DNA of 64,000 nt, from the NCBI GenBank assembly GCA_016187515.1, contig JACPJN010000006.1, positions 192,856 through 256,855 of the forward strand, read 5' to 3'. Below the pieces are notes generated by a model that saw only the letters and a list, made by a program, of their open reading frames with translations, made no database searches and was not told where the DNA came from. Position numbers and translations under genes: made by a program. The stretch comes from Candidatus Uhrbacteria bacterium (lineage in GTDB: Bacteria > Patescibacteriota > Patescibacteriia > GWA2-47-26). Shown here in pieces: positions 4,502 through 38,443 of the stretch. The first letter of the stretch is position 1; each line of letters begins with the position of its first letter.

Positions 4502-6982
4502 ATGTCCAAAGAAATTCCAAAGCAATACAACGCCTCCGAGCATGAGGATTCCATATATAAAATGTGGGAGGCCTCCGGCGCGTTTACGCCAGAGGCGGCA
4601 AAGAGCATAGGGCGTATAGCAAAGAGTAGGAACCCTAAGCCCTCAGCTCTAAGCTCTAAGCCATTTTGTATCATCATGCCTCCGCCCAATGCCAACGGCG
4701 CTTTGCATATTGGCCATGCCTTTGAAGTCGCCTTGCACGATCTTTTGGTGCGCTACCACCGCATGCGTGGCGATAAAACTCTTTGGCTTCCCGGCGCGGA
4801 TCATGCCGGCTTTGAGACCCAAGTGGTGTATGATAAAAAACTGGAAAAGGAGGGCCGTAATCGCTTCAAAATACCGCGAGAAGAATTGTGGCAAGAAATC
4901 TGGAACTTTACGCAAGAAAATAAAAAAACCATGGAGGGACAGCTGCGCAAACTCGGCGCCTCTTGTGATTGGTCGCGCGAAAAATTTACCCTTGATCCTG
5001 ATATAATTAAAACTGTTTATGCGACGTTCAACCAGCTCTATGTCGATGGGCTTGTCTATCGCGATAACCGCATTGTGAATTGGTGCACAAAGCATCAAAC
5101 CACTCTTTCAGATCTTGAAATAAAGCACGTTGAGCGCAAAGACCCGCTTTATTACATCAAATACGGTCCAGTAACTTTGGCCACAGTGCGTCTGGAAACA
5201 AAATTTGGCGATACCGCAGTGGCGGTACACCCGAAAGATAAGCGATATAAAAATTTAATCGGCAAGGAGATCGAGATCAAAACGTTACTTGGCCTGACAA
5301 AAATCAAAGTCATTGGCGATAAGGCGGTTGATCCGGAATTTGGAACCGGTGCGGTAAAAGTAACGCCGGCGCATGATCCGAATGATTTTGAAATGTGGAA
5401 AAGGCATGAACAAGAAATTCCAGGACCAAAATCGGTTATTGATCAATATGGTCGCATGGAACTTGTAAGCCGCTGGCCGGACAATCCGGCTGCGAAAAAA
5501 TACCATGGCATGAAGGTGCTGGAGGCACGTAACGCTATGGAGAAAGACATGCAGGAGCAAGGATTGATGAACAAAATTGATTCGGAGTATGTACATAGCG
5601 TTGCGACCTGCTATAAATGCGGCAACATTGTGGAGCCAAGAATTTTACCACAATGGTATGTCCGCATGACGGCTCCGCCGTCAGCGGGAAATCACAAATC
5701 ACAAATCACAAATCACAAATCTCTGCGCGATATTGCAGTTGAGGCGGTAAGGAAAGGCGAAATTAAAATTATTCCGAAACGATTTGAAAAAATCTTCATG
5801 CATTGGATGAAAAACTTGCGCGACTGGAATATCAGCCGTCAAATCGTGTGGGGCATTCGGATTCCGGCGTGGTATCGGTCTACGGTTCCTCCCCTTAGGG
5901 TAAGGGGAAGCGAGGAGGGGTTACGAGACGTTCATAACCCACCCCAATCCTCCCACGCCTTTTGGGAGGGAGAAACGGAAATTTATGTAGGCGCCAAACC
6001 ACCAAAAGGCGAGGGTTGGATCCAAGATCCGGATGTCTTTGATACTTGGTTTTCCTCCGGCCAGTGGCCATTTGCTACTCTTGGCTATCCGCATGGCAAA
6101 GATTTCAAAGAATTTTACCCGACCGATGTCATGGGGCCGGCGTACGAAATTCTTTTCTTCTGGGTGGCGCGGATGATTATGCTTGGTCTTTATCGCACCG
6201 GAAAAATTCCTTTCAAAACCGTGTTTCTCCACGGTTTAGTACGCGATAAGGACCGACAAAAAATGTCCAAATCTAAAGGAAACGTGATTGACCCTTTGGG
6301 AGTTGCGGATTTATATGGCACGGATGCCGTGCGTATGGCGCTCGTTTCTGGAACGGCTCCGGGTAATGATCCGACCATTTCCGAGGAAAAAATAAAAGGC
6401 TACCGTAATTTCGCAAACAAAATCTGGAACGCGAGTCGGTTTGTGCTGATGAATCTCGACCCGCTTTTTGTCATTCCGAGCGAAGTCGAGGAATCTCACA
6501 TGATGAAACACGGCAAGCGCATGGCAGGGCAAGGTGTGAGATCTCTCACTGGCGTTCGAGATGACATTGTGTTGAGCGCAGCCGACAAAAAAATCCTCAA
6601 AGAACTAGAGGCCATGGCCAAAAAAGTAACCCGCCATTTGGATAAATTTGAATTTCATCTTGCGGGAGAAACTCTCTACCACTATTTCTGGCATACCTTT
6701 GCGGATAAGATTATTGAGCAAATGAAACCGCGGCTACAGGGAGAGACCCCTCCTAACCTCCCCTCCGAGAGGGGAGGAAACGAATCACTTTCTCCCCCTG
6801 CCCGAGGGGGAGTTAGAGGGGGTGGGAGCGATCGTCTCACCGCCCAATATATCCTCTACACCTGTCTGACCACCTCCCTCAAGCTCCTCCACCCCTTCAT
6901 GCCGTTTGTTACGGAGGCGGTGTGGCAACAATTACAGCACAAAAAGAAAACCATGCTTATTACCGAATCTTGGCCGGTATGA
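4502..6982 (+). CDS. valS: valyl-tRNA synthetase
   Basis: The class I HIGH motif reads PPPNANGALHIGHAF, and KMSKSKGN is present. The gene carries one heptamer repeat insertion at 5688-5722 and two palindromic insertions at 5888-5975 and 6746-6827. Confidence 0.85.
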   Translation: MSKEIPKQYNASEHEDSIYKMWEASGAFTPEAAKSIGRIAKSRNPKPSALSSKPFCIIMPPPNANGALHIGHAFEVALHDLLVRYHRMRGDKTLWLPGADHAGFETQVVYDKKLEKEGRNRFKIPREELWQEIWNFTQENKKTMEGQLRKLGASCDWSREKFTLDPDIIKTVYATFNQLYVDGLVYRDNRIVNWCTKHQTTLSDLEIKHVERKDPLYYIKYGPVTLATVRLETKFGDTAVAVHPKDKRYKNLIGKEIEIKTLLGLTKIKVIGDKAVDPEFGTGAVKVTPAHDPNDFEMWKRHEQEIPGPKSVIDQYGRMELVSRWPDNPAAKKYHGMKVLEARNAMEKDMQEQGLMNKIDSEYVHSVATCYKCGNIVEPRILPQWYVRMTAPPSAGNHKSQITNHKSLRDIAVEAVRKGEIKIIPKRFEKIFMHWMKNLRDWNISRQIVWGIRIPAWYRSTVPPLRVRGSEEGLRDVHNPPQSSHAFWEGETEIYVGAKPPKGEGWIQDPDVFDTWFSSGQWPFATLGYPHGKDFKEFYPTDVMGPAYEILFFWVARMIMLGLYRTGKIPFKTVFLHGLVRDKDRQKMSKSKGNVIDPLGVADLYGTDAVRMALVSGTAPGNDPTISEEKIKGYRNFANKIWNASRFVLMNLDPLFVIPSEVEESHMMKHGKRMAGQGVRSLTGVRDDIVLSAADKKILKELEAMAKKVTRHLDKFEFHLAGETLYHYFWHTFADKIIEQMKPRLQGETPPNLPSERGGNESLSPPARGGVRGGGSDRLTAQYILYTCLTTSLKLLHPFMPFVTEAVWQQLQHKKKTMLITESWPV
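5888..5975. repeat. Palindromic element (ccccttagggtaagggg / ggggttacg type) in-frame in valS
   Basis: It translates to PPLRVRGSEEGLRDVHNPPQSSHAFWEGE. Confidence 0.6.
6746..6827. repeat. Palindromic element (cccctcc..ggagggg type) in-frame in valS
   Basis: It translates to ETPPNLPSERGGNESLSPPARGGVRGGGSD. Confidence 0.6.
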
Positions 6983-7824: not shown

Positions 7825-8070
7825 AAGGAACGGAAAAATACTATCCCTATATTGCATCCAAAGAGCTTAATCTGCAGATTTTGCCAAAATAAAATACAGC
7901 CCCTACTCCCTTGCGGGAGACGCCACCATGAAGGCGACTAGTCAGGGCTGTATCAATTCCACTATCACCATACCATAAGATACAATATCTGTCAAGACAA
8001 CGGTGGGGATAAGTCATGCATAGCAACAATATGATAACGCAATAACTTAATAACCAAATAACTCATCAAT

Positions 8071-8946
8071 ATGCCAACCCCGGGAGACGAGAAAAAACCA
8101 AAGCAAGAAAGACCTCAAGGACCAGAGACGCTGGAGGAGGCCGCGGCGCGCGCGGCCGGAGTAGCGCGGGCGGGAAGGGAAAAAGCGGCTGGAGCGGCGC
8201 TGGCGGAGGCGGAAAAAGCATGGGATCCAGACAAATTTCTCGCACAATTGACGAGTTATCAAGACAACCCTCAATTACCAGATTACGAAGAGAAGATGGA
8301 CGCGCTTGGAGATCAATTTCAGGAATTTGGGGAGCAGTACGCAGATCGTTGGCAGGAAATGATAGAGCAGGGATTGGGCGGAACGCCGGAAATGGTTGCT
8401 GTACTTCGAGAAAAACTTCGAGGAAAGTTGCTGGTAGATCTTGGAGGCGGATACACGCTTGGAGATGGCCCAAGAGGTATTATGCAGTCAATCATGCAAG
8501 ATGTGGCGCTGGAGCTTGGAGTTAAGGATTATGTGAATGTTGATCGCCATTTTACCAAACGAAGGGTATCCGCATTTTTTAATCCTACAGATGTGACGAG
8601 GAGACTTGGCATTGAACAGCCAAGAGGGATGCATGCGCTTTATGTGCAAGCAGATATGCTCGCTTTCCTTGCGCATATGCAGAGCGAGACTCCAAATTTA
8701 ACAATCGCGCTAAATGGTATTGATTCATTTGTGATTCCTGATCGGGCGCGCTTTGGCCGCGGTGATTCATATTTTCAAATGCTTGTGAAGGAGATCGCTC
8801 GTGTACTACCCAAAGGTGGAGTAGTGCTGACCCAAGGATCTGAAGACGCAACAAAGTATTTTGATGATGCTGTATTTGAAGCAGCGCCAGGATACTCAAA
8901 AGAAAAAGGTGCGATGTTTGAAGGGCAGGTGTGGGTAAAAAAATAA
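8071..8946 (+). CDS. hypothetical protein, paralog A. It has a shared N-terminal module and a possible Rossmann-like GGG motif (LLVDLGGGYTLGDG).
   Basis: The N-terminal ~45 aa (MPTPGDEKKPKQERPQGPETLEEAAARAAG...AALAEAEKA) and about 30 nt of upstream sequence are shared with the 9050 gene. Confidence 0.5.
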   Translation: MPTPGDEKKPKQERPQGPETLEEAAARAAGVARAGREKAAGAALAEAEKAWDPDKFLAQLTSYQDNPQLPDYEEKMDALGDQFQEFGEQYADRWQEMIEQGLGGTPEMVAVLREKLRGKLLVDLGGGYTLGDGPRGIMQSIMQDVALELGVKDYVNVDRHFTKRRVSAFFNPTDVTRRLGIEQPRGMHALYVQADMLAFLAHMQSETPNLTIALNGIDSFVIPDRARFGRGDSYFQMLVKEIARVLPKGGVVLTQGSEDATKYFDDAVFEAAPGYSKEKGAMFEGQVWVKK

Positions 8947-9049
8947 ATCATCTATGATATAGCGGTGTCGTGATATGCAATTTAAGAGGATGTATTTGAT
9001 TACCTGGATCCAGCGGGCTGCGATCCATAACTAATAATAACTCACCAAT

Positions 9050-10054
9050 ATGCCAACCCCAAAAGGCGAGAAAAAACCAACACCAGAACAGCCCAAAGGG
9101 CCAGAAACGCCGGAGGAAGTTGCGGTGCGCGTGGCGGGCGCAGTGCAGGCAGGAAAAGAAAAATCCGCCGCCGCGGCGCTGGCAGGGGCGGAGACCGAAG
9201 CACCGACGGCAGAGCGTGCTGAACAAGATCCTGCGGCGCAAGCCCGCGAGATTGCTCAAAAGTATCTTGACACAATTCCGGAGGCGGACAGAAAACTTAC
9301 TGACCCCAAACAGGTTGAAACTTTATTGTATGTCCTTGAAAGTACTTACACCCCTCCGGGCAGTCAACTATTTGCAAATGTAGATAGGCTCGGGAATATG
9401 CCTACACGTGCACGAGAAGCTTTTTTTAAAAAAGATGTTAAAGGGCTGGCGCAAGCATGGCGAGATTATGCTGACGATCCTGTTGGTGTTGCTAAAGAAG
9501 CCGATAAATTGAGGCAGATTGGCGCAAGTACTCTTCCGGAGTCGGTGCGCACAGCGCTACTCTCTATCATTTTGAAAGAGGGGGATCATTCCGTGGTTGA
9601 GATGGCAAAAGATGCCGCGGCAGCATTGGAGCAGACTGGTGATCTGGGAGCGTTAAAATCATTGAGGGAAAAATATCTCACACCTGAAGTATTCAAGGCG
9701 ACTTCCTTGCGGCAAGACGTTGCCCGTGAACTTCTTAAGGGGTTGTATCCGGATTTAATGCAACGTGAAGAAGTGGCATTCTTTGAGGAAATGAGTAGTT
9801 TGCCTGATGAAAAATCATCTGATAAAAACACCGTCGTGGCCATGGTCGAACGGTATGGGCAATTATTGGGTGATGCACCACTATCGGAGCGGGCTAGTGA
9901 TGAGTTAGAGGGTGCAATAAATCCGCAGGACGTCATCACTAAGATACAGGACGGTAGTATCCCAGAGCATGCTCTTGGGGCCGTTATTTCTGCGCTTCAA
10001 GTAGAAGCACGGTCCAAAATTGCTCAAAAAGCAACCTCGGCGGAGAAGAAGTAA
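9050..10054 (+). CDS. hypothetical protein, paralog B (shared N-terminal module, different C-terminal domain)
   Basis: It begins MPTPKGEKKPTPEQPKGPETPEEVAVRVAG...AALAGAE. The conserved upstream sequence is ataactaataataactcaccaatATG. Confidence 0.5.
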   Translation: MPTPKGEKKPTPEQPKGPETPEEVAVRVAGAVQAGKEKSAAAALAGAETEAPTAERAEQDPAAQAREIAQKYLDTIPEADRKLTDPKQVETLLYVLESTYTPPGSQLFANVDRLGNMPTRAREAFFKKDVKGLAQAWRDYADDPVGVAKEADKLRQIGASTLPESVRTALLSIILKEGDHSVVEMAKDAAAALEQTGDLGALKSLREKYLTPEVFKATSLRQDVARELLKGLYPDLMQREEVAFFEEMSSLPDEKSSDKNTVVAMVERYGQLLGDAPLSERASDELEGAINPQDVITKIQDGSIPEHALGAVISALQVEARSKIAQKATSAEKK

Positions 10055-10592: not shown

Positions 10593-10596
10593 AATC

Positions 10597-10704
10597 CTTA
10601 AACTTCTCCACCCTTTCATGCCCTTTGTTACGGAGGCGGTGTGGCAGCGAATGCCCCACGCCCAAAAATCCATGCTCATAGTTGAGAAATGGCCAAAAAT
10701 GTGA
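10597..10704 (+). pseudogene. Duplicated 3' fragment of valS
   Basis: It encodes ...[34 protein letters not shown]. The real valS C-terminus at 6870-6982 reads [34 protein letters not shown]. The two are about 75% identical at nucleotide level over about 100 nt. Confidence 0.6.
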
Positions 10705-11941: not shown

Positions 11942-13817
11942 TCAGGCACGAAAAGACATCCTAGCGATTCTCAATAAGGCGGGGGTTGCGGCAACGCCCG
12001 CTGATCTTGTCTTTCCGCCAGATCCGCAGATGGGCGATCTGTCGTTGCCGCTTTTTGCGCTGGCCAAGGAGCGGAAAATTGCGCCGGGGGCGCTGGCGCA
12101 GGAATTGGCACGGACATTGAAACCGGCCGGACTGGTGGAGCGCCTTGAGGCCGCTGGGCCGTACCTTAATTTTCGGCTGAAGCGGGGGGAAGTGGCTAAA
12201 ATGATGCTCACCCTCCCCTCAATCCCCTCCCGTCAAGGGAGGGGAAGCAAAACAAAATCCCCCTCCCCTAGTGGGAGGGGTCAGGGGAGGGGGAATCAGC
12301 GCATCATGATGGAAATGGTTTCTCCCAACAACAACAAACCTCTCCACCTCGGACACTTGCGCAATGCGTTTTTGGGCGAATCAGTCGCCCGTCTGCTTGA
12401 ATCGCAAGGCGCAAAAATTATTCGTACCTGTCTTTTTAACGATCGCGGACTGGCGATTGCCAAAGCCATGCTCGCCTACAAACTTTGGGGCCCGCCAAAC
12501 TTTCCATCAACAAAGGATAAAGTTAAGCGGGTAAACCAAAGTCTGCCAGAAAAGGGAGACCACTATGTGGTGCAGTGGTATGTGTTATTTGAGCAAAGAG
12601 CAAAGAGCAAAGAGCAAAGTGATTTACAAAAACAAGCCGAGGAATTGGTGCGCCTTTGGGAAGCCGGCGACAAAGAAACTCTCGCGCTTTGGAAAAAAAT
12701 GGCTGGCTGGGCGCTGGACGGCATCAATGAAACACTCAAGCGGATTGAAATTAAATTCAACACTATCTATTATGAGAGTGAGCTTTGGAAACAAGGGAAA
12801 AAAGTGGTTGAGCAAGGATTAAAAAAGGGTATTTTTAAAAAAGACGAGAGCGGGGCGGTGCTGGTGGAATTTGACTCACCCTCACCCCAACCCTCTCCCA
12901 TCAAGGGAGAGGGAGTAATCGGCAATCCCCCTCCCCTGGTGGGAGGGGTAAGGGGAGGGGGTTTACCCCCAAAAGTTCTTTTGCGCTCCGATGGCACGGC
13001 AATCTATGCCACGAGCGACCTAGCGCTTACCCCGGAAAAATTTAGAAAATATAAACTTTCGCATTCAATCTGGTGCGTGGGGCAGGAACAGGATCTTTAT
13101 TTGAAACAGCTTTTTGCAATTTTTAAACTGCTCAATTACAAATGGTCTGATTCCTGCGAACATTTAACCTACGGGCACGTCGCGCTTCCGGAAGGGCGCA
13201 TGAAAACGCGGGAGGGAACTGTGGTGGAAGCCGATAATCTTTTGGATGAACTTCACGAACTCGCCCGCAAAGAAACGCAAAAACGGCATAAAGGCCTTGG
13301 GCGCGAAAACCTGCATGCCCGAGCTGAAACAATCGCGCAGGCCGCGGTGCGCTATCATCTTTTGCGCGTTGACCCGAAATCCGGAATCCAATTTGACCCG
13401 CAACAATCACTCGCCTTTACCGGCGACACCGGGCCGTATCTGCTTTACACGTATGCGAGGATTGCAAGCATACTCCGGAAGGCGGAAACTAGAAATTTGA
13501 AATTAGAAACTAGAAAATCTAAATCACCAATCACTAATTTCCAATTTCCAATTTCGCAAAATGAGTGGACACTCATTTTGCTTCTTGCCCGCTTTCCGGA
13601 AATCATTACGCAGGCCACCAAAGATCGCGACCCATCCCATCTTGCAAAATATCTCTATAAACTTGCTCAACAATTTTCTGATTTTTACGAAAACTCGCCA
13701 ATTCTCAAATCCGCCGAACCCATCCGCTCCTTCCGCCTGGCCCTTATTTCCGCCATTCAAAAAACTCTTAAACATGGTCTGCACCTTTTGACCATTGAAA
13801 CGGTGGAGGAGATGTGA
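11931..13817 (+). CDS. argS: arginyl-tRNA synthetase
   Basis: The HIGH-like motif reads PNNNKPLHLGHLRN. The ATG at 11931 overlaps the tyrS end by 11 nt. It carries heptamer repeats at 12588-12620 and 13486-13550, and palindromic insertions at 12210-12297 and 12878-12965. Confidence 0.85.
   Translation: MVLNQARKDILAILNKAGVAATPADLVFPPDPQMGDLSLPLFALAKERKIAPGALAQELARTLKPAGLVERLEAAGPYLNFRLKRGEVAKMMLTLPSIPSRQGRGSKTKSPSPSGRGQGRGNQRIMMEMVSPNNNKPLHLGHLRNAFLGESVARLLESQGAKIIRTCLFNDRGLAIAKAMLAYKLWGPPNFPSTKDKVKRVNQSLPEKGDHYVVQWYVLFEQRAKSKEQSDLQKQAEELVRLWEAGDKETLALWKKMAGWALDGINETLKRIEIKFNTIYYESELWKQGKKVVEQGLKKGIFKKDESGAVLVEFDSPSPQPSPIKGEGVIGNPPPLVGGVRGGGLPPKVLLRSDGTAIYATSDLALTPEKFRKYKLSHSIWCVGQEQDLYLKQLFAIFKLLNYKWSDSCEHLTYGHVALPEGRMKTREGTVVEADNLLDELHELARKETQKRHKGLGRENLHARAETIAQAAVRYHLLRVDPKSGIQFDPQQSLAFTGDTGPYLLYTYARIASILRKAETRNLKLETRKSKSPITNFQFPISQNEWTLILLLARFPEIITQATKDRDPSHLAKYLYKLAQQFSDFYENSPILKSAEPIRSFRLALISAIQKTLKHGLHLLTIETVEEM
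12210..12297. repeat. Palindromic element in-frame in argS
   Basis: The sequence caccctcccctcaatcccctcccgtcaagggaggggaag...ccccctcccctagtgggaggggtcaggggaggggg translates to LTLPSIPSRQGRGSKTKSPSPSGRGQGRGN. Confidence 0.6.
12878..12965. repeat. Palindromic element in-frame in argS (second)
   Basis: It translates to SPSPQPSPIKGEGVIGNPPPLVGGVRGGGL. Confidence 0.6.
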
Positions 13818-25222: not shown

Positions 25223-25230
25223 ATGTCAAA

Positions 25231-30019: not shown

Positions 30020-30500
30020 GCGCCCGGATGACCGTGAAGTCAGAGCCGGGACGCGGAAAGTAACGCGAGGGATTGTTGCGGCATTGGTACTCCCCCTAGA
30101 GAGAATTGGCACCGCATTTCCTTTGTACATGCCAAACGACGAATCGGTCATTGACCCCCGGTTTTGACCCGGACAGTTGTGCGTCTATTCTGCACCACCT
30201 TATACAGCGCCGCAAGGCAGGGTACCGACCTATGGCCTCTTCATCCGATAGTGGTGTCGCGGACGGAAAGCGATCGCGCACGCATCCCTCGACTCTGGGT
30301 CCAAACAACAGCATCTCGCGGCAATTGCTACTGCTACAATACGCTGAAGCGTGACTGATACAATACGCGGGGAGACACTCCTCCTGCCAAAGTTTTCGAA
30401 GCAGCTTTTTCCAGAGTCTTTCCCAAAGGCGCATGGGTCCTCCTGTTTATGGTAGCCCCTTGTTCATTATTTTGCCAAGTTTTCGACAATTTGTCAAGGG
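30020..30500. ncRNA. candidate structured non-coding RNA (identity unresolved)
   Basis: About 480 nt with no credible ORF. It is GC-rich with many long-range complementary segments (for example gagggat/atccctc, and gtgcag-aatag-acgcac as a hairpin). In minus-strand reading there are patches resembling bacterial RNase P RNA (CCATAGG, TAAGGTG..GTGCAGAATAGACGCAC, CCCGGCTCTGAC). Confidence 0.2.
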
Positions 30501-30561
30501 CGGGGTACAATGGAAGCATTCGTGAGTTATTCGTCTCTTATTTGTGAGTTATTTGTGTTTT

Positions 30562-31308
30562 ATGAAAGAAATAATCCCCACCATTCTTGTGCAAGATCGT
30601 TTGGAGTTTGAACGGCGGCTTGGTATAATGGAGGGGAAGATTCCGGTTGCGCAGATGGATATTATGGATGGGAAGTTCGTTAAAAACACCACCTTTTCCG
30701 ACCCGAAAATCGCCGCGCGCTACCAAGTGGACTATGAGTTGGATTTGATGGTGGCCGATCCTGGGCCGGTGCTGGAGAAGTGGCACGACACCCTCCCCCC
30801 CGCCCGTGGCGAGGCTCGCCTTTGGCGGCAGCCCCCTCCCATTAAGGGAGGGGGAAAAGTGGTACGAGCGTTTGTGCATGCCGAGATAAAAAAACCTCTG
30901 GCGTCGCTTCTTGAAAAAATAAAATCGTACGGCTGGGAAGCCGGGATTGCGCTCAATCCGGATACAGGGTGGGAAGTGGTGGAGCCGTATATCGCTCGTA
31001 ACCCCTCCCGACCTCCCCTTACCCTAAGGGGAGGAGAAACTGTGGACTCCATACTTTTTATGACGGTCTATCCCGGGCAAAACGGCGCGGCGTTTCAGCC
31101 GAAAGTAATTCCGAAGATTACGCAGTTTCATAAAGCGTATCCAAAGATAATAATTGAGGTGGACGGCGGAGTAAACGAGAAGACCTTACCCCGCCTACTC
31201 ACGGCCGGCGTTACTCGTTTTGCGGTTGGCAGTGCGATATGGTCCGCGCCGGATCCCGTTGGAGAATATAAAAAACTTTTTCAATTAACAAATAACTCAC
31301 TAATATAA
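30562..31308 (+). CDS. rpe: ribulose-phosphate 3-epimerase
   Basis: It has DIMDGKFV and the end-motif VDGGVN. There are two palindromic insertions at 30790-30858 and 30999-31038. The leader carries 11-nt repeats. Confidence 0.75.
   Translation: MKEIIPTILVQDRLEFERRLGIMEGKIPVAQMDIMDGKFVKNTTFSDPKIAARYQVDYELDLMVADPGPVLEKWHDTLPPARGEARLWRQPPPIKGGGKVVRAFVHAEIKKPLASLLEKIKSYGWEAGIALNPDTGWEVVEPYIARNPSRPPLTLRGGETVDSILFMTVYPGQNGAAFQPKVIPKITQFHKAYPKIIIEVDGGVNEKTLPRLLTAGVTRFAVGSAIWSAPDPVGEYKKLFQLTNNSLI
30790..30858. repeat. Palindromic element in-frame in rpe (second copy at 30999-31038)
   Basis: ccctcccccccgcccgtggcgaggctcgcctttggcggcagccccctcccattaagggagggggaa. Confidence 0.55.
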
Positions 31309-31377
31309 ACGAATGACCCACCTATAGGAATTCGTGAGCCATACGTCTTCTTATTCGTGAACCATTCGTCAATTCAA

Positions 31378-31470
31378 TATGAAGAAATTATTTTGGATCC
31401 TCATTGGTCTCGTGATTGCGCTGACGGTGGTAATTCTGGTGCTTGCCTTGGTCGCGGCGCTTCGCGCTTA
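31378..31470 (+). CDS. putative 30-aa single-TM peptide
   Basis: MKKLFWILIGLVIALTVVILVLALVAALRA*. It is flanked on both sides by attcgtgag repeat arrays. Confidence 0.3.
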
Positions 31471-31568
31471 AACACAAATAGCTCACGAATAGAAACGAAT
31501 AGCTCACGGATATATTCGTGCGCCATTCGTAATTTGTGAGTTATTTGTAACCAATTCGTGAGCTATTC

Positions 31569-32432
31569 GTGCATATGCATATTCATGACGATAAGATCAA
31601 GGAGTTAGAAGAGAAAGCTCTCCAGGTGCGCGAGCTTATCATTGATATGCTTGTCGCGGCGGGCTCCGGCCATTCGGCCGGCCCCTTGGACATGGCCGAC
31701 ATTTTTGTCGCGCTATATTTTCATATTCTGCACCATGATCCGAAAAACCCGGACTGGCCCGAACGCGACCGGCTGATTTTATCCTGCGGCCATATTTGTC
31801 CGGTGCGTTATGCAACTATGGCGCTCGCGGGATATTTTCCAATTGAAGAATTAAAGACGCTGCGCAAGTTCGGCACGCGCCTGCAAGGGCACCCGGAACG
31901 CCTGCGTCTTCCCGGATCCGAGACCACTTCCGGCCCGCTTGGCGCCGGACTGGCACAATCCTGCGGCCTGGCCTACGCCGCGCGTATGGACGGCAAGACC
32001 TGGCGTACTTATTGCATTACCTCGGACGGCGAGCATGAAGCCGGATTGCATTGGGAAGCCGTGCTGTGGGCCGGAAAATATAAACTTTCTAATTTGACGT
32101 GCATTGTAGACCGCAATACCATTCAAATTGACGGCGGGACCGAGGAGATCATGCCGCTTGAACCCCTGCGCGCCAAATACGAGGCCTTTAATTGGCATGT
32201 GCTGGAAGTCGGCGGGCACAATCTGGAACAATTTGTTGACGCGGTGGAAGAAGCCAAATCCATTTTGGAAAAACCCACGGTCATCATCGCGCACACCATC
32301 CCCGGCCGCGGCGTTTCGTTCATGGAGAAAAAATTCGAATGGCACGGGATCCCGCCGAATAAAGAACAAGCGGCCCAGGCATTGCGTGAACTACGCACTC
32401 TTGGAGGTAAGATTACTTCGGAGCACGAGTGA
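31569..32432 (+). CDS. tkt: transketolase, N-terminal (TPP-binding) subunit
   Basis: GSGHSAGPLDMADIFVALYF...GHPE....TTSGPLGAGL matches Transketolase_N. This is the split form. Confidence 0.8.
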   Translation: MHMHIHDDKIKELEEKALQVRELIIDMLVAAGSGHSAGPLDMADIFVALYFHILHHDPKNPDWPERDRLILSCGHICPVRYATMALAGYFPIEELKTLRKFGTRLQGHPERLRLPGSETTSGPLGAGLAQSCGLAYAARMDGKTWRTYCITSDGEHEAGLHWEAVLWAGKYKLSNLTCIVDRNTIQIDGGTEEIMPLEPLRAKYEAFNWHVLEVGGHNLEQFVDAVEEAKSILEKPTVIIAHTIPGRGVSFMEKKFEWHGIPPNKEQAAQALRELRTLGGKITSEHE

Positions 32433-32482
32433 TATTTGACTAATGGCTCACAAATGCGTAACAAATAGCTCACGAATAACAA

Positions 32483-32911
32483 ATGAAAGACGAATTACTC
32501 ACAAATAAAGTGCTGCATGCGGAATTATCGTACAAATTCGTTTCACTGGCAATTGAAGTCAGTAAAAAGTATGGCTATCTTCATAAAGAACAAGTGTATC
32601 AAAAAGTTATGGAGGAGTTGCTCGCTAAAAATGGTATTCCTTTCATCGCCCAGCCAAGGATTAATGTGCATTCGCTCGATACGGGTAAATCTTTAGCGGT
32701 ATATGTTCCGGACATATTAGTAGATCAAAAGATCATCGTAGAACTCAAGGCATTGCCATTTGTTCCTAAACCGCAGATTAACAAGTTAGAACAATATCTA
32801 AAAACATCCCGCTATGAGGTCGCTTATATGGTAAACTTCGGCACGCCAAAAGCACAGATTGTCAGAAGAATTTATACCAATGATCGAAAACCATTTGTGA
32901 GCCATTTGTAA
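32483..32911 (+). CDS. GxxExxY-family protein (PD-(D/E)xK-like)
   Basis: ELSYKFVSLAIEV...YGYLHKEQVYQKVMEEL...IIVELKAL...VNFG matches the GxxExxY family. It is inserted between the two tkt halves. Confidence 0.7.
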   Translation: MKDELLTNKVLHAELSYKFVSLAIEVSKKYGYLHKEQVYQKVMEELLAKNGIPFIAQPRINVHSLDTGKSLAVYVPDILVDQKIIVELKALPFVPKPQINKLEQYLKTSRYEVAYMVNFGTPKAQIVRRIYTNDRKPFVSHL

Positions 32912-32934
32912 TTATTCGTGAGTAATTTGTCACT

Positions 32935-33927
32935 ATGCCGGTAAGCCAAACTGCTAAATTAGTGCCCACACTGTTTGACACCCAGTCCCTCAAACAAGTA
33001 CCCACCAGAGATGGCTACGGTCTTGGCATAGTTGAAGCCGGAAAGGAAAACCCCAACGTCGTCGTGCTTTGCGCGGATCTTACCGAATCCACGCGGAATT
33101 TGGAATTTAAAAAACAATTTCCCGACCGGTTTATCCAGTGCGGGGTGCATGAGCAATTTCTGGCTGCCGCCGGAGCCGGGCTTGCGCTGGCCGGAAAAAT
33201 TCCGTTTATCTCCTCGTATGCGATGTTTTGCCCGGGCCGCGCCTGGGAACAAATCCGCACCAACATTTGTCTTAATGAGGTAAATGTCAAAATCGCCGGG
33301 GCCCACGCCGGGGTCTCCGTCGGCCCGGATGGCGCAACGCATCAAGCCATTGAGGATATCGCGATCATGCGCCCGATTCCCAATATGCAGATTATCGTGC
33401 CCTGTGATATGATTGAGACGCGCAAAGCCACACTCGCTGCCGCGAAACTCCCCGGCCCTTTCTACGTGCGCTTCGCGCGCGAAAAGTCGCCGGTTTTTAC
33501 AACCGAAGAAACGCCTTTTGAATTCGGGAAGGCCACGGTGTTTCACGATGGGAGCGACGTGGCAATTGTGGCCTGTGGACCGCTTGTCCATGAAGCAATG
33601 CTTGCCGCGCGAGAACTGGAAAAAAGGAAAATCTCCGCGCGGGTCATCAACTCGCACACTGTAAAACCCCTTGATGAAGACACAATACTAGCCGTGGCAG
33701 AAGAATGCGGCGCAATCGTTACAGTAGAAGAGCACCAAATCACCGGCGGACTGGGCGGGGCGATTGCAGAGTTTCTGGTCAAACACGCGCCAGTGCCGAT
33801 CGAAATGATCGGTATCCAAAACTTATTCGGCCAAAGTGGAAACCCTCGGGAACTTTTAGAACATTACGAACTCACCGCCCCGCATATCGTAGAATCCTGC
33901 CTAAGAGTACTGGCAAGGAAAAAATAA
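32935..33927 (+). CDS. tkt: transketolase, C-terminal (pyrimidine-binding) subunit
   Basis: ...CGVHEQFLAAAGAGLALAGKIPFISSYAMF...GPDGATHQAIEDIA matches Transket_pyr plus the C-terminal domain. Confidence 0.8.
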   Translation: MPVSQTAKLVPTLFDTQSLKQVPTRDGYGLGIVEAGKENPNVVVLCADLTESTRNLEFKKQFPDRFIQCGVHEQFLAAAGAGLALAGKIPFISSYAMFCPGRAWEQIRTNICLNEVNVKIAGAHAGVSVGPDGATHQAIEDIAIMRPIPNMQIIVPCDMIETRKATLAAAKLPGPFYVRFAREKSPVFTTEETPFEFGKATVFHDGSDVAIVACGPLVHEAMLAARELEKRKISARVINSHTVKPLDEDTILAVAEECGAIVTVEEHQITGGLGGAIAEFLVKHAPVPIEMIGIQNLFGQSGNPRELLEHYELTAPHIVESCLRVLARKK

Positions 33928-34061
33928 CCCTCTCTTTAACATACCTTATGGCCTTCCACCCCAAACCCTCCCGTCCAACGGCTTTTCTTTTTCCGCCCTT
34001 GCGCGCGCCGGAGGAAAAAGGCGATTTTCGCCAAGAAATTTCCTGGCGCATCTTTCGCATC

Positions 34062-34661
34062 ATGGCCGAATTTATTGACGGTTTTCAGTTTTTGGCCGAC
34101 CTTAAAAAAGAAGTAAGTTTTTTCGGCTCCGCGCGGTTCAAGCCGTCCAACAAGCACTACCGCGAAGCGGAGAAACTCGCGCGGATGCTCGGCAAAGCCG
34201 GATTTACCGTAATTACCGGCGGCGGTCCGGGAGTGATGGAGGCGGCGAACAAGGGGGCAATTGAAACCGGCGCGGAGTCGGTCGGACTGAATATTCAGCT
34301 CCCGAAAGAACAGCGGGTTAACCGGTATGTAAAGCATGGCATTGGTTTCCATTATTTTTTTACCAGAAAAGTTATGCTCTCGGCTTCGGCGCAGGCCTAC
34401 GTATTCTTTCCCGGCGGATTTGGAACGCTTGATGAAATGTTTGAACTCATTACGCTTATTGAAACGGAAAAAGCCGAGCGCATCCCTATTGTACTTATCG
34501 GCAAGGATTACTGGAGCGGACTGCTTAGCTGGATTGAAGAACAAGTATATAAAAAACACCACGCGATAGAAAGGGGAGACATGAAAATTTACACGCTGGT
34601 GGACTCGGTGGAGGAGGCGTATGAGATTGTGGTGAAGTCAAAAGAACGAGCGTATTTCTAG
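34062..34661 (+). CDS. LOG-family protein (cytokinin riboside 5'-monophosphate phosphoribohydrolase-like)
   Basis: SFFGSAR....VITGGGPGVMEAANKGA...PGGFGTLDEMFE is the TIGR00730 signature. The ORF-track start at 33705 overlaps tktC by 220 nt and is rejected. An alternative start is 33948. Confidence 0.7.
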   Translation: MAEFIDGFQFLADLKKEVSFFGSARFKPSNKHYREAEKLARMLGKAGFTVITGGGPGVMEAANKGAIETGAESVGLNIQLPKEQRVNRYVKHGIGFHYFFTRKVMLSASAQAYVFFPGGFGTLDEMFELITLIETEKAERIPIVLIGKDYWSGLLSWIEEQVYKKHHAIERGDMKIYTLVDSVEEAYEIVVKSKERAYF

Positions 34662-34677
34662 TGATGAATCATGAATT

Positions 34678-35067
34678 ATGAATCAAGAATCAAGGGGATT
34701 GAAATCGTTTACTGATCTCAATGCATGGAAAGAAGGACATGCACTCGTTCTACAAATTTACAAAACAACAAAGGCCTGGCCGAAAGAGGAAGTGTTTGGA
34801 CTAATAAGCCAGATACGTCGCTGTGCAGTATCAATTACTTCCAACATTGCCGAGGGTTTTAGCAGACAATCGTATAAAGAAAAAGTACAGTTTTACGCAA
34901 TCGCACTCGGATCAGTCACCGAACTTCAAAACCAACTCCTGATCGCGAAAGATGTGGGGTACATCGCTATTGACAATTTCAACACAATTGCACAACAGTC
35001 AATCAAGGTACACAAAATTATCAATGGTCTGGTCAAAAGCTCAAAATCCATGATTCATAATTCGTGA
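34678..35067 (+). CDS. four-helix-bundle protein of the '23S rRNA intervening-sequence protein' family (TIGR02436)
   Basis: ...AWKEGHALVLQIYKTTKAWPKEEVFGLISQIRRCAVSITSNIAEGFSRQS.KE...F. It is bracketed by tgattcat/atgaatca repeats at 34663-34700 and 35043-35083. Confidence 0.75.
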   Translation: MNQESRGLKSFTDLNAWKEGHALVLQIYKTTKAWPKEEVFGLISQIRRCAVSITSNIAEGFSRQSYKEKVQFYAIALGSVTELQNQLLIAKDVGYIAIDNFNTIAQQSIKVHKIINGLVKSSKSMIHNS

Positions 35068-35083
35068 TTCTTGATTCATCAAT

Positions 35084-36061
35084 ATGCTCAATCTCCTCTC
35101 CATTGGCGACATTAAACTGGATACTTTTGTAGTAGTACCGGAAACCTCCAGTTTTTGTAAACTGCAAATGCCGGAGTATTTGCTTTGCTTTAATTATGGC
35201 GAGAAAATTCCGGTCGGCGCGGTGGAATCGCAAATCGCCGGAAGCGCGCCAAACGTCGCGGTCGGACTTTCGCGATTAGGGTTTAAGACCAGTGTATTTA
35301 GCTTTATGGGACAAGACGGCATTCATAAGCTCGCGCTCGATGTGCTTAAAAAGGAAAAAGTGGACGCGCGTCTGATTAAGACCTTAACGGGCGCGAAAAG
35401 CAGTTTTTCCGCGGTGTTAAACTATAAAGGAGAAAAGACCATTTTGGCCTCGCACATTTCATACCCTTACGCCCTTCCGAAGCGCTTGCCGCAAATGGAA
35501 TGGATGTACGTGTGTGAAATGGGACATAATTACAAACGGCTTTACCGTGAAGCGGCGCGCTGCGCAAAAAATAGGCCGCTAAAAATCGGGTTTAACCCGG
35601 GCGCTATTCAAATTATGGAACGCGATAAAGCGCTTTATGAGCTGATCGCGCAAACCGAGGTGTTGTTTGTTAATGTTGGCGAAGCGCACGCCATCTTAAA
35701 ACAAGAACGCCAACCCCTGCCCATTGAGCGCGTCGCGTCAGAATTGTATAAAATGGGGCCAAAAATTATCGTCATTACCGACGGCCGCAAAGGCGCCTAC
35801 GCCTTTGACGGGAACCAGCTGGATTTCTGCCCAGTATTTCCTTCCAAGCGCGTGGAGGCAACCGGCGCCGGAGATGCCTTTGCAACCGGCTATCTTGGGG
35901 CGCTGATGCGCAAGATTGGCCATCGGGAAGCGCTGCGCTGGGGCGCGGCCAACGGGGCGTCGGTGGTCGGTTTTGTCGGGCCGCAACCCGGACTTTTGAC
36001 CCTTCCGCAGATGCGCGCGACTTTGCGCAAGCACGCGAATATAAAAGCCGTGAAAAGGTAA
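35084..36061 (+). CDS. PfkB-family carbohydrate kinase
   Basis: Ribokinase-like fold with the C-terminal GAGDAFATGYL motif. Confidence 0.7.
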   Translation: MLNLLSIGDIKLDTFVVVPETSSFCKLQMPEYLLCFNYGEKIPVGAVESQIAGSAPNVAVGLSRLGFKTSVFSFMGQDGIHKLALDVLKKEKVDARLIKTLTGAKSSFSAVLNYKGEKTILASHISYPYALPKRLPQMEWMYVCEMGHNYKRLYREAARCAKNRPLKIGFNPGAIQIMERDKALYELIAQTEVLFVNVGEAHAILKQERQPLPIERVASELYKMGPKIIVITDGRKGAYAFDGNQLDFCPVFPSKRVEATGAGDAFATGYLGALMRKIGHREALRWGAANGASVVGFVGPQPGLLTLPQMRATLRKHANIKAVKR

Positions 36062-36104
36062 AAAAATTGACACCGCCCATGCATATATAGTATGCTACGG
36101 GTAT

Positions 36105-36374
36105 ATGGCCCACACCAATCTTATCTCGCAAATCAGCACCGCACGCTTAAGCCGTGATCTTGAAGAGATTGATCGGCTGCTGCATCGTATTAAAAAACAT
36201 ATTGACACTTTGCCGCCTCACACTGCAGACGCTAACCTATCCAGCGTATGGAAACGCACTGCCGGTATTATTTCCCAGGAACGTGCCGAGGAAATTATTG
36301 CGTCAATCGCCCAATCGCGTAAGAAGTGGAGTGATAATTCCGCAAGAATAGAACAGATGTGGCATTCCGAATAA
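36105..36374 (+). CDS. hypothetical small protein
   Basis: An 89-aa ORF. There is a TTGACA...TAGTAT-like promoter upstream at about 36066-36095. Confidence 0.35.
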   Translation: MAHTNLISQISTARLSRDLEEIDRLLHRIKKHIDTLPPHTADANLSSVWKRTAGIISQERAEEIIASIAQSRKKWSDNSARIEQMWHSE

Positions 36375-36465
36375 TCATAAGCTATGAGCTTTCATTACCA
36401 AAAACCTCCGTGATTTCAAAGATATTCCTGATCTCGTGGTCCGGGATCATTTTTAGCGTCCTCTC

Positions 36466-37356
36466 ATGGTAATGTCCCTGCACTCCACACTTATCCGTGC
36501 CGCGAAAGAAAAATGGGCCGTACCGCATTTTAATGTCGGCGACTTTGAGCAGTTTCGCGGGGTGTGTGAAGCGGCGGCAAAGTTGCGCGCGCCGGTCATG
36601 ATCGGCACTTCCGAAGGCGAACGCGATTTTTTAGGTCTGCCCCAGTCGGTCGCGCTGGTAAAGGCGTTCCGCGATCAGCTGCATCTGCCTATTTTTCTTA
36701 ATGCTGATCATACCCGAAGTGTACGGGCCGCCAAAGCGGCCATTGACGCCGGGTACGACAGTATCCATATTGACCTTTCGCGAGAGCCGTGGAACACGAA
36801 CCTTAAGGGTACGCGAGAAATAGTGCGCTACGCGCGTGAAAAATGTAAAAGGAAAAATGTAAAATGTAAAATTAGTGTTGAAGGCGAATTGGGCTACATT
36901 GTAACTGAATCATCAAAAGTGTATAAAAAGAAAATTTTGGTTGACCCTTCCACCTTTACAAAGCCGGAGGAGGCAAAAAAATTTGTGCGGCTTACCGGAG
37001 TTGATCGTTTTGCGCCGGCGGTTGGAAATTTGCACGGCATCGCCGCAAACAAACCAAAACTTGACTTTGTACTTATAAAAAAACTACGCGGTATAATTCC
37101 GATGAATGTCGCGCTGGTGCTTCACGGCGGATCCGGAAATAGTCCGGCGGCGTTTAAAAAAGCGATCAAGCTCGGTATCAACAATATCCACATTTCCACC
37201 GAACTGCGCATCGCGTATGTGAAATCCGAACACGCCTCGCTCCATCGCCAAAAAAACGAACTCGCCCCGTACAAACTCGCCGCGCCGGTAGTTGAGGCCG
37301 TGCGCAAAAAAGCCGAATATTTTATTAGATTGTTCGGGGCCTATAATAAAGCATAG
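36466..37356 (+). CDS. fba: class II fructose/tagatose-bisphosphate aldolase
   Basis: ...PHFNVGDFEQ....LNADHT....HGGSG. An in-frame repeat aaaatgtaaaa sits at 36838-36870. Confidence 0.75.
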   Translation: MVMSLHSTLIRAAKEKWAVPHFNVGDFEQFRGVCEAAAKLRAPVMIGTSEGERDFLGLPQSVALVKAFRDQLHLPIFLNADHTRSVRAAKAAIDAGYDSIHIDLSREPWNTNLKGTREIVRYAREKCKRKNVKCKISVEGELGYIVTESSKVYKKKILVDPSTFTKPEEAKKFVRLTGVDRFAPAVGNLHGIAANKPKLDFVLIKKLRGIIPMNVALVLHGGSGNSPAAFKKAIKLGINNIHISTELRIAYVKSEHASLHRQKNELAPYKLAAPVVEAVRKKAEYFIRLFGAYNKA

Positions 37357-37357
37357 T

Positions 37358-38443
37358 ATGTTTGATGTCATTACAATAGGAAGCGCGACCCGCGACGTGT
37401 TTTTGTTTGTCCAAGCGCTTCATCCGCATCGGGAATCAGACGCGGTAAGTAAAATTGAGGCCTGTCTTCCCTTCGGCGCTAAAATTGATATTGAACGCCT
37501 TGCTTTTGATACCGGCGGAGGAGCAACCAACAGCGCCGCGACGTTTGCGCGGCTGGGAAAATTTGAAGTTGCGGCGCTCACGCGCATAGGACAAGACAGC
37601 CGCGGACAAAGTATTTTAAAAGTGCTTCACGCCGACAACATTGATACTTCGTTGGTGCAAGTCACCAATAAAGATCATACCGCTTATTCTTCAATCCTTT
37701 CTCCAACCCACGCGCATAGTGAGCGCACGATTTTGGTCTATCGCGGGGCATCCTCATGCATTGAGAGCAGTAAAATTCCGTGGACTAAACTGCGTGCCAA
37801 ATGGTTTTATATATCTTCGCTTGGCGGCGATCTGTTACTTTTAAAGAAACTTATCGACCATGCTCGAAGGATAAAAGCTCAAGTCGCCTGGAATCCCGGC
37901 GGTCAAGAACTCTCCAAACTCACCCCTCCCCTTAGGTTAAGGGGAGGTTGGGAGGGGTTACGACAATCAATTGACTTCCTCATCCTCAACCGTGAAGAAG
38001 CCGCAAAACTCACTGGAAAAAAATTCGATGACACCAAAGGATTGCTTCGCGCGCTGGCGCGTACTACACACATCGCAGTCATGACCGACGGCCCTAAAGG
38101 CGCGTATGCCATCGTAGGTTCACAGTCATCAGTTCACAGTTCACAGTATCGTAATTCAAAAACTAATTACCCAATTACCAAATTACCTAATCACCAAACG
38201 GCCTACTTCGTCCCCTCTGTCGGCCACAAACCGGAAAATCTCACCGGCGCCGGTGACGCTTTCGGTTCCGGCTTTGTAACCGGCTGGATCAAAAGCCGCG
38301 GCGATATCAAATACGCCTTACGCTTGGCTTCGTTCAATGCTGACAGTGTAGTCCAACACGTCGGCGCGAAAAACGGAATTCTTGAGAAAATTCCTTCCGC
38401 AAAGCAGCTGCAAAAGTTGCCCGTAAAGACACTGCACATTTAG
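37358..38443 (+). CDS. PfkB-family sugar kinase (second copy)
   Basis: I place the start at MFDVITIGSATRDV. The C-terminus has a GAGDAF motif. There is a palindromic insertion at 37921-37962 and tandem repeats at 38120-38200. Confidence 0.65.
   Translation: MFDVITIGSATRDVFLFVQALHPHRESDAVSKIEACLPFGAKIDIERLAFDTGGGATNSAATFARLGKFEVAALTRIGQDSRGQSILKVLHADNIDTSLVQVTNKDHTAYSSILSPTHAHSERTILVYRGASSCIESSKIPWTKLRAKWFYISSLGGDLLLLKKLIDHARRIKAQVAWNPGGQELSKLTPPLRLRGGWEGLRQSIDFLILNREEAAKLTGKKFDDTKGLLRALARTTHIAVMTDGPKGAYAIVGSQSSVHSSQYRNSKTNYPITKLPNHQTAYFVPSVGHKPENLTGAGDAFGSGFVTGWIKSRGDIKYALRLASFNADSVVQHVGAKNGILEKIPSAKQLQKLPVKTLHI

Follow-up and report, generated by a model that had tools for sequence, protein, structure and literature searches.

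What carries tandem repeats with a seven-nucleotide unit, a length that is not a multiple of three, into the reading frames of essential genes? The question is raised by a 64 kb stretch, referred to below as the window, from a metagenome-assembled genome of Candidatus Uhrbacteria, a member of the Candidate Phyla Radiation (CPR, or Patescibacteria), in which arrays of heptamers lie within housekeeping genes, in spacers and in the 23S rRNA gene. A preliminary description of the window ascribed these arrays to a slippage or insertion process acting on protein and rRNA genes alike, and raised phase or antigenic-like variation of the host proteins as a possible consequence. Here, we report that arrays of the same kind form both ends of a small cassette that carries a PF05635 ('23S rRNA intervening sequence protein') gene. 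The reading that we favour, with a probability of roughly 0.55, is that the heptamer arrays are the stem-forming ends of selfish cassettes of the intervening-sequence (IVS) type, together with derivatives that lack the open reading frame (ORF) or one of the two arms, all filtered by selection.

Results and discussion

Heptamer arrays are abundant and preserve the reading frame

Tandem Repeats Finder (TRF) detected about 39 period-7 arrays in the window, a few of them with a unit of 8 nt or with units of 14 or 21 nt as multiples. Nearly all of the arrays in the preliminary description were recovered, at most a few bases displaced; one element in the gene of a GT4 glycosyltransferase, placed there at 14262-14290, does exist and spans 14243-14279, a partial overlap. 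The window is clearly enriched in this period: exact runs of at least three copies were observed 6 times, against none in 50/50 third-order Markov simulations, and a mismatch-tolerant scan returned 16 segments at lag 7 against 0-1 for each other lag from 5 to 12. A typical array measures ~30 nt, corresponding to 4-5 units, and many are degenerate, with 72-85% matches. Inspection of the units ruled out a CcrM-type GANTC site as the feature they have in common, as many of them do not contain it.

The genes of the window, identified with Pfam, form a typical CPR housekeeping set (ValRS, TyrRS, ArgRS, IleRS, RuvA, FemAB and the GT4 glycosyltransferase), accompanied by pentose-phosphate enzymes, a class II aldolase, several PfkB kinases, ATP-citrate-lyase (ACL)-like subunits and GlmS. 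A curated gene map assigns 26 arrays to coding sequence (0.54 per kb), 11 to intergenic sequence (0.86 per kb) and two to the rRNA gene, so that coding sequence is depleted only ~1.6-fold. All 26 coding arrays reside in intact, in-frame ORFs (valS, tyrS, argS, GT4, femAB, ruvA, ileS, fba, pfkB and the ACL-beta-like gene), confirming the earlier expectation that only products which keep the frame survive. Period-7 arrays are spread over protein genes, the spacers between genes, the 23S rRNA and a group I intron, which likewise upholds the proposal that the underlying process is genome-wide.

A PF05635 gene is enclosed by inverted heptamer arrays

A gene-bearing counterpart of the arrays occupies positions 34662-35083, between a LOG-family gene (stop 34661) and pfkB1 (start 35084). 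Its ORF (34678-35067) encodes a protein of 129 aa that belongs to PF05635 (Pfam, E = 2e-37), and is enclosed by an ATGAATC-type array on the left (34664-34692) and an inverted GATTCAT-type array on the right (35049-35079), with both the start and the stop codon falling inside heptamers. When the cassette is folded as RNA its ends are paired in a ~27-bp stem, in both the minimum free energy and the centroid structures. The same junction is empty in L001, a comparison genome from a relative with an IleS 61% identical to that of the window: there, the TAG of the LOG-family gene and the ATG of pfkB are separated by 1 nt, versus 422 nt in the window.

The cassette changes its neighbours while its ends stay the same. 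In four other CPR genomes the PF05635 gene lies between different co-directional genes or operons, always with the same terminal arrays and with its start and stop codons within the heptamers. Many CPR homologues of the PF05635 protein share 70-81% identity with it, whereas, beyond a 100% identical NCBI protein from Candidatus Uhrbacteria, no match to IleS exceeds 61%, the identity of the next-best match in a search of 5.8 billion proteins; judged by these values, the relatives of the cassette protein appear to be much closer than those of any housekeeping protein of this genome. More distant PF05635 genes, on the metagenome contigs L133 and L170, have (GGAGATT)n on one side and (AATCTCY)n on the other, and the left and right flanks of the L133 gene are matched over 30-38 nt by composite arrays within femAB and ileS of the window. 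Three PF05635-like genes emerged from an iterative profile search of 0.70 Mb of array-selected contigs, each within ~120 nt of arrays, although contig L087 is an ambiguous case, and none emerged from 1.31 Mb of IleS loci. Within the window, both ends of an ORF-less remnant at 19261-19349 match the ends of the cassette better than in 300/300 shuffles; short non-coding elements with terminal inverted repeats related to those of a longer coding element, the pattern of miniature inverted-repeat transposable elements, are thus found here.

Arrays with a shared unit order recur at distant loci

Several arrays are copies of dispersed elements. GT4 (twice), femAB, ruvA and pfkB2 share a ~31-nt element whose units run CTGTGAA-CTGTGAA-CTGATGA-CTGTGAA, and ileS of L001 has it as well; a 14-nt unit, AATCTCG-AATCTCT, is present at four loci; and a two-array composite, (ATTGGAK)n followed by (AATCTCK)n, is common to femAB and ileS. 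The pattern (AATCTCK)4 was found in more than 120 Joint Genome Institute (JGI) metagenome contigs of 35 to 70% GC; many of them have additional period-7 arrays, some of which lie in long ORFs. The same order of variant units at several loci, together with the match to the ends of the PF05635 cassette, points to the copying and insertion of preformed arrays. Pure local slippage is insufficient, and of the process named in the preliminary description slippage is retained in a secondary role at most.

Five JGI contigs (L094, with 70% GC, L170, L182, L115 and L126) contain many AT-rich period-7 arrays (for example GAGATTC, TTGGGAT and CCGAAAT), often as inverted pairs at gene boundaries and sometimes within ORFs of 2-3 kb. 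Arrays on contigs of unrelated, even very GC-rich organisms indicate that the phenomenon reaches well beyond the CPR.

In the mechanism that we envisage, a full copy of ~420 nt would comprise a left array of 4-5 heptamers, the gene of a four-helix-bundle PF05635 (Avd-like) protein and an inverted right array, with both arrays pairing in the RNA into a ~27-bp stem. Copies and miniature derivatives, the latter either an array plus an inverted array or a single ~30-nt array, would have been inserted throughout the Uhrbacteria genome, and selection would then purge the harmful insertions. Protein genes would keep only in-frame, stop-free, hydrophilic inserts in the A-rich-strand orientation, placed in variable surface loops; the 23S rRNA and the group I intron would keep only hairpin forms that extend peripheral helices. 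Slippage would probably homogenize the arrays and occasionally alter their length, rather than being their main source. Under this mechanism the coding-region arrays would derive from PF05635 cassettes, and the locus-unique direct arrays may belong to the same process. PF05635 is homologous to Avd, the accessory protein of diversity-generating retroelements (PMC10053308).

A number of observations weigh against a cassette origin. PF05635 is not a known transposase and has no demonstrated role in mobility, and Pfam scans of 50 window ORFs revealed no transposase, recombinase or reverse transcriptase, the sole nuclease-type matches being a LAGLIDADG ORF in the 23S gene, a PDDEXK_3 gene and an EEP-family gene. 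The window holds one full cassette only, and a target-site duplication is not definable at the single clean empty site (TAG-T ... ATG). Contigs L133, L170 and the ambiguous L087 were retrieved by an array search and are therefore a biased sample. At two IleS sites the arrays of the window and of L001 differ in their unit (at the site of 26392-26424, L001 has a GAGTTAM array instead of TTTCCAA), which site-specific slippage would explain no less well than repeated insertion. The arrays AAATCAC of valS, GAGCAAA of argS, AGGACGG of femAB and those at 26916 and 27598 in ileS are direct-only and unfolded, with units unique in the 64 kb; such clean direct-only arrays could be products of local slippage. 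Finally, the array at 24184-24218 adds only 3 aa net to FemAB relative to FemX, and that at 26392-26424 (IleS residues 944-954) adds 0 to 4 aa net relative to orthologues; with such small net gains, these two are not simple insertions.

The alternative that survives best, although we consider it unlikely as a general explanation, is replication slippage in place: the arrays would be ordinary simple sequence repeats (SSRs) tolerated by repair-poor CPR bacteria, heptamers would expand more readily than other unit sizes, as in many bacteria, and the arrays flanking PF05635 genes would be just more of the same. Slippage accounts readily for the perfect arrays with locus-unique units in valS, argS and femAB, for the arrays of different units that are held by the same IleS loops across lineages, and for the sporadic period-7 arrays in IleS loci of other CPR bacteria and of Lentisphaerae, where no other period is enriched. 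Furthermore, heptameric SSRs are over-represented in many bacteria, with arrays of ~4 units, single or in inverted pairs, in Xanthomonas and Nostoc (PMC4692102), and the number of heptamers differs among Coxiella strains (PMC4990558). However, independent slippage gives no reason to expect one heterogeneous unit order at five loci and again in a second genome, the composite shared by femAB and ileS, the strictly conserved array termini of a cassette that changes its genomic context, or AT-rich arrays of one unit class in contigs of 35 to 70% GC; nor does it sit easily with arrays that are invariant across at least 6-7 samples (see below).

Most coding arrays are insertions in variable loops

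Alignments to orthologues and to structures in the PDB showed that most coding arrays are net insertions, as the preliminary description had anticipated, and that they lie in variable loops. An alignment of 16 IleS sequences places net insertions of ~13-19 residues, in loops of variable length, at the arrays 28494-28556, 27598-27653, 26916-26980 and 26567-26644 (15-19 aa for 27598-27653, ~14 aa for 26916-26980 and ~18 aa for 26567-26644), and the window IleS, at 1119-1146 aa, is ~145 residues longer than the typical ~975 aa. The valS array lies within a 16-residue insertion relative to Thermus thermophilus ValRS, and the fba array within an 8-residue insertion relative to PDB 3q94. The window thus holds both repeat families shared between loci and, in the conserved proteins IleS, ValS and Fba, in-frame insertions at variable or surface positions. 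An AlphaFold2 model of IleS, built on the 16-sequence alignment, is poor (mean predicted local distance difference test score, pLDDT, 54) and informative in the C-terminal half only; in that better-modelled half pLDDT dips at the array-encoded residues 757-771 and 875-893, which lends weak, model-based backing to the placement of IleS arrays in loops.

The arrays are also distinct in composition, with 66% A+T versus 48.5% for the host genes. On the sense strand the coding arrays contain 41.5% A, 24.6% T and 13.9% G, with A exceeding T in 21/25, and the encoded peptides are hydrophilic, rich in K/N/Q/S/T/E/R and stop-free in the frame used. We read these features, along with the array densities in coding and intergenic sequence, as marks of the proposed selective filter. 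Replication-strand bias was considered as the source of the A-rich orientation and rejected: the A-bias follows the gene strand, and the GC skew is mostly negative across gene-strand switches, so the bias does not look replication-linked.

That the array peptides are retained because they are useful, housekeeping proteins being modified by flexible and hydrophilic linkers or by disordered loops in the way proposed for Borg repeats, appears improbable to us. The strongly A-rich sense strand with its hydrophilic products, the location in variable loops, the pLDDT dips and the similar low-complexity peptides at the same IleS loops in orthologues from other CPR genomes would all suit such a role. 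The same arrays nevertheless are also present where nothing is translated, in intergenic DNA, an intron and rRNA; their 7-nt units are not multiples of 3, unlike those of Borg ORF repeats; the bias in composition is explained equally by purifying selection against hydrophobic or stop-containing orientations; and the structural model is poor overall.

An ORF-less hairpin extends the 23S rRNA

The 23S rRNA gene lies on the minus strand (61726-64000), and the heptamer expansion noted there in the preliminary description proved to be a stretch of 161 nt (61797-61958) that replaces 11 positions, ~2816-2828, of the bacterial large-subunit (LSU) model (Rfam LSU_rRNA_bacteria), roughly at helix 98. 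The stretch contains no ORF and forms one long hairpin on folding, in which heptamers pair with their complement (-54 kcal/mol, z = -6.9). Two features of IVSs are present, extra sequence in a 23S helix that is absent from the consensus bacterial 23S rRNA and complementary termini that form a long, stable stem-loop, and RNase III may process the insert. In RNA genes only hairpin forms are seen (the 23S insert and the intron). PF05635 ORFs and short non-intron insertions have been reported in CPR rRNA genes (PMC11270868).

Hairpin formation was also considered as a universal property of the arrays and rejected: no fold was found for those in valS, at 12591 in argS, at 24340 in femAB, or at 26916 and 27598 in ileS. 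The hairpin of the femAB composite is not significant (z = -0.85).

Three group I introns occupy the 3' third of the 23S gene (~62218-62940, 62934-63141 and 63233-63602), the first of which carries a LAGLIDADG_1 ORF at 62296-62805. The location of the window introns agrees with the 3' bias reported for CPR 23S introns (PMC11270868).

Array copy number is fixed across samples at the consensus level

Logan contigs, assembled from several Sequence Read Archive runs (within SRR12113383 to SRR12113431), were retrieved via the exact RuvA and window PF05635 protein sequences. Contig L203 (7 samples) is 100% identical to window positions 30030-37954 and contig L210 (6 samples) to positions 22721-26231, giving 11.4 kb of identical sequence (7.9 kb + 3.5 kb) with nine arrays, among them the five in femAB, those in ruvA and fba, and intergenic ones. 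At the consensus level, array copy number is fixed in the population. Exact-protein look-ups with IleS (both start choices) and FemAB gave no match, Logan contigs breaking at GC-rich dispersed repeats, and a search of JGI metagenome contigs for copy-number variants of the valS array, keyed to its unique flanking sequences with a gap of variable length between them, returned no matches. The perfect 30-nt AGGACGG array has its outer edge at 24340, and contigs L211 (4 samples) and L213 break off precisely at this position; ~5 runs stop there, and contigs from 6 other runs read through. It is possible that these ends mark a minor longer-array variant in some samples, at which a k=31 assembly graph would break. 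The comparison of copy number between samples, proposed in the preliminary description, thus yielded identity in at least 6-7 runs, close to the fixed copy number that the description itself had set against its idea, and one weak counter-hint at 24340.

Phase or antigenic-like variation, in which changes in copy number at contingency loci would switch or vary the host proteins, is very improbable on these grounds and already close to refuted. Short tandem repeats are the classical substrate of phase variation, and the contigs that stop at the edge of the AGGACGG array could reflect a co-existing longer variant. The hosts, however, are essential, cytoplasmic, single-copy genes, a 7-nt step destroys their frame, and the contigs are identical over nine arrays in at least 6-7 runs, so this part of the preliminary description is unsupported; moreover, the degeneracy of many arrays suppresses slippage. 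The phase-variable loci of Haemophilus and Neisseria have units of 1-5, occasionally 7 nt, lie in surface or restriction-modification genes and are hypervariable in copy number. The window arrays resemble them as short tandem repeats inside ORFs and differ in being hosted by housekeeping genes (those of ValRS, TyrRS, ArgRS, IleRS, RuvA, the aldolase, kinases, FemAB and GT4) and in the fixed copy number.

An assembly or sequencing artefact, for which the metagenomic source and the error-prone nature of repeats might speak, can be dismissed as scarcely credible, given that the arrays are shorter than a read, that the frame is kept in 26/26 coding arrays, that homologous arrays occur in unrelated assemblies of relatives and that independent assemblies are identical, by which it is excluded for the checkable stretches (30030-37954 and 22721-26231).

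Relation to known repeat systems

23S IVSs with an S23p/PF05635 ORF are known from Leptospira, Coxiella and Brucella, classically at helices 9, 25 and 45. The ORF is a feature of the larger IVSs, and RNase III cuts IVSs out of the precursor with no rejoining of the ends, so that the mature 23S rRNA is in fragments. The IVS of Coxiella burnetii is 428 nt long and consists of a PF05635 (S23p) ORF within a 28-bp terminal stem that is cut by RNase III, with tandem heptamers (GACAGAT x2-3) abutting the ORF start (PMC4990558). The window cassette shares the gene family, the size (~420 nt), a stem of ~27-28 bp and the heptamers adjoining the ORF start, and the ~30-nt length of the arrays is comparable to the Coxiella stem; the window 23S insert, as an ORF-less stem-loop in a peripheral helix, resembles the short IVSs. 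In contrast, the ORF-bearing copy lies between protein genes rather than in rRNA, as do its homologues in the four CPR genomes; its entire terminal repeat is made of heptamers; the 23S insert lies near helix 98 and not at one of the classical helices; and in-frame, array-only derivatives in protein genes are not described for IVSs.

Heptameric SSRs have been described in Xanthomonas (GGGAATC) and Nostoc (GGGGAYT) and as cyanobacterial short tandemly repeated repetitive (STRR) sequences (Rehm 2015, PMC4692102, citing Mrazek 2007). Those of Xanthomonas prefer four units, are often arranged as convergent inverted pairs, are G-rich and mainly intergenic and were not linked to mobile elements; in both genera they are spread across the genome and were considered to have nothing to do with phase variation (PMC4692102). 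The window arrays agree with them as dispersed tandem 7-nt units of ~4 copies, single or in convergent inverted pairs. The Xanthomonas and Nostoc repeats are G-rich (GGGNATC) and G-quadruplex-forming, mostly intergenic and depleted from coding sequence, with no reported link to PF05635, whereas the window units are A/T-rich with no runs of G-tracts, 26/39 are coding (the ~1.6-fold lower density noted above), and many different units occur.

Rickettsia palindromic elements (RPEs), reportedly described by Ogata et al. in 2000, are said to be selfish repeats of 100-150 nt found in frame in conserved proteins and also in RNA genes. They are tolerated through landing in surface loops, and their host is an alphaproteobacterial parasite. 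The window arrays are alike in behaviour only, being dispersed, in frame in conserved genes and present in RNA genes; RPEs are palindromic and without a tandem heptamer substructure. The small dispersed repeats (SDRs) of Nostoc punctiforme, attributed to Elhai et al. in 2008 (Genome Res 18:1484, a paper cited in PMC3116915), are reportedly mobile repeats of 21-27 nt embedded in heptameric tandem repeats, and are said to lie in conserved genes and RNA spacers with function kept. Both systems tie very small mobile repeats to heptamer arrays; the SDR is the mobile unit and the heptamers its setting, whereas in the window the heptamers are the ends of the element and the PF05635 gene its cargo.

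Borg ORF repeats have units divisible by 3 and have arisen locally; the window units, in contrast, are of 7 nt, common to several loci and genomes and also present in rRNA. The likeness lies in short tandem repeats that add low-complexity, probably disordered segments, Borg elements being described as having pervasive tandem repeats that create disordered protein regions (PMC9879509).

The finding therefore joins known kinds of element, namely IVSs, heptameric SSRs and in-frame selfish repeats of the RPE type, and adds one testable point, the physical link of heptamer arrays to a horizontally spreading PF05635 cassette. A literature search found no report of heptamer arrays inside protein genes of CPR/Patescibacteria. 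A much broader claim, which we put forward tentatively and hold to be doubtful, is that heptamer arrays are the signature ends of a widespread, unrecognized class of mobile cassettes with PF05635 cargo, that 23S IVSs are copies which landed in rRNA, and that the elements and their gene-less derivatives colonize spacers, introns, rRNA and essential reading frames; such a class could underlie the heptamer excess in the PF05635-bearing Xanthomonas, Nostoc and Coxiella and, given the homology of PF05635 to Avd, might move through an RNA intermediate excised at the array stem. If true, the bacterial excess of 7-nt repeats, long reported without a mechanism, would gain a testable origin, and 23S 'intervening sequences' would be one landing site of a more general element. 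CPR bacteria with their tiny genomes would be seen to tolerate selfish DNA within rRNA and within the frames of single-copy aminoacyl-tRNA synthetases, with consequences in these lineages for the calling of genes, the alignment of orthologues and phylogenomics. In practical terms, the results dispose of phase variation in housekeeping proteins, a reading that is tempting but wrong.

Catalogue of arrays

The positions, strands and units of the individual arrays are collected in Table 1.

Table 1. Heptamer arrays and related elements in the window, in order of position. Spans in brackets are the component arrays; z values refer to hairpin folding.
Location	Position	Strand	Array
valS	5689-5721	+	AAATCAC x4.7, 100% matches, direct, without hairpin
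argS	12591-12619	+	GAGCAAA x4.1, 100% matches, direct
argS	13485-13555 (13485-13524 + 13536-13555)	+	GAAAYTA-type, then inverted AATTTCC array; arms of 22 nt, 86% complementary; z = -2.8
GT4	14243-14279 (TRF array 14246-14260)	+	Copy of the ~31-nt GTGAACT-family element
GT4	14562-14639 (14562-14596 + 14606-14622)	+	Inverted pair of the GTGAACT family: AGTTCAC-type, then GTGAACC-type
Intergenic	19261-19349	+	ORF-less remnant of a PF05635 cassette
femAB	24019-24101 (24019-24049 + 24055-24101)	-	Composite (ATTGGAK)n + (AATCTCK)n
femAB	24184-24218	-	Solo AATCTCG/AATCTCT array; perfect 14-nt unit x2.5
femAB	24340-24369	-	AGGACGG x4.3, 100% matches
femAB	24499-24538 (TRF array 24508-24538)	-	GTGAACT-family element; peptide VNSSQSAVHS
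ruvA	25362-25398 (TRF array 25367-25394)	-	GTGAACT-family element
ileS	26392-26424	-	TTTCCAA x4.7
ileS	26567-26644 (26567-26604, 8-nt unit; 26615-26644)	-	Composite (GGATGATT)n + (AATCTCK)n; same layout as the femAB composite; plus-strand hairpin, z = -2.2
ileS	26916-26980	-	TTTGGAA/TTTGGGA x9; without hairpin
ileS	27598-27653	-	ATTTGTA/ATTTGGA x7.6
ileS	28494-28556	-	GTAAGTT x4.4 (28494-28525), then inverted copy (28525-28556); z = -5.3
Complete PF05635 cassette	34662-35083	+	Inverted heptamer arrays at both ends of the gene
fba	36840-36872	+	AAAATGT x4.7
pfkB2	38118-38147 and 38165-38198	+	GTGAACT-family element; AATTACCA x4.2
ACL-beta-like gene	46785-46816	-	TCTTAAT/ATTCATA-type, related to the 3' arm of the cassette (family D9)
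Intergenic, CofD/glmS	48566-48609		ATTCATAATTCTTAATTC array; family D9, as the 3' arm of the cassette
Intergenic	53490-53566		GATTGGAA-type array + AATTATC-type array
23S rRNA insert	61797-61958	-	161 nt near helix 98; arms CAAATCC-type / GGATTTG-type
Third group I intron of the 23S gene	63395-63500	-	ACATTTG/TGTCAAN-type heptamer hairpin, z = -3.4

Other repeats and features of the window

A second cassette family with tandem-array termini is represented by the PDDEXK_3 (PF13366) gene at 32483-32911, which lies between two transketolase halves and has inverted arrays of 11-nt period (ATTYGTGAGYN) on either side, the whole spanning 32456-32928. The 11-nt arrays also occur as ORF-less hairpin copies in other intergenic spacers (30518-30563, 31466-31578 and 40093-40134). 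At the site of the PDDEXK_3 gene, L001 has three unrelated hypothetical ORFs.

A further dispersed class, unrelated to the heptamer arrays, consists of GC-rich imperfect palindromes, CCCCTCCCCT...AGGGGAGGGG, of 40-113 nt, many of them in frame in valS, argS, GT4, femAB, ileS and pfkB2. They were located at 525-609, 5875-5973, 6746-6828, 12181-12293, 12849-12961, 14078-14118, 14790-14866, 23769-23807, 25963-26027, 26200-26303, 28319-28403, 29422-29456, 30818-30856, 30999-31037, 37925-37963 and 43444-43528, and encode peptides of the 'PLPQGERE / SPLRVRGDRG' type that are missing from IleS orthologues. These palindromes behave like RPEs and match them in form more closely than the heptamer arrays do. 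The Logan contig ends at 26231, 26027 and 37954 lie inside them.

A hairpin, TACTCATTTTAGGTGCGATCGCAAATAAATGAGTA (family D14), is present in three copies directly upstream of ORFs (22714-22770, 38495-38551 and 39188-39244), with the HIP1 octamer of cyanobacteria, GCGATCGC, in its loop. Part of valS, 84 nt at the 3' end (6877-6960) that encode the conserved LLHPFMPF motif, is repeated with 79% identity at 10596-10679, just upstream of tyrS; the second copy may be where another class I synthetase gene ends, or what is left of such a gene. Two hypothetical genes, at 8071 and 9050, have starts that lie in a shared 157-nt repeat (8057-8213 and 9036-9192, 77% identity), and the minus strand at 7889-7954 matches the DUF3800-IX RNA motif of Rfam with 51 bits, over the gathering score.

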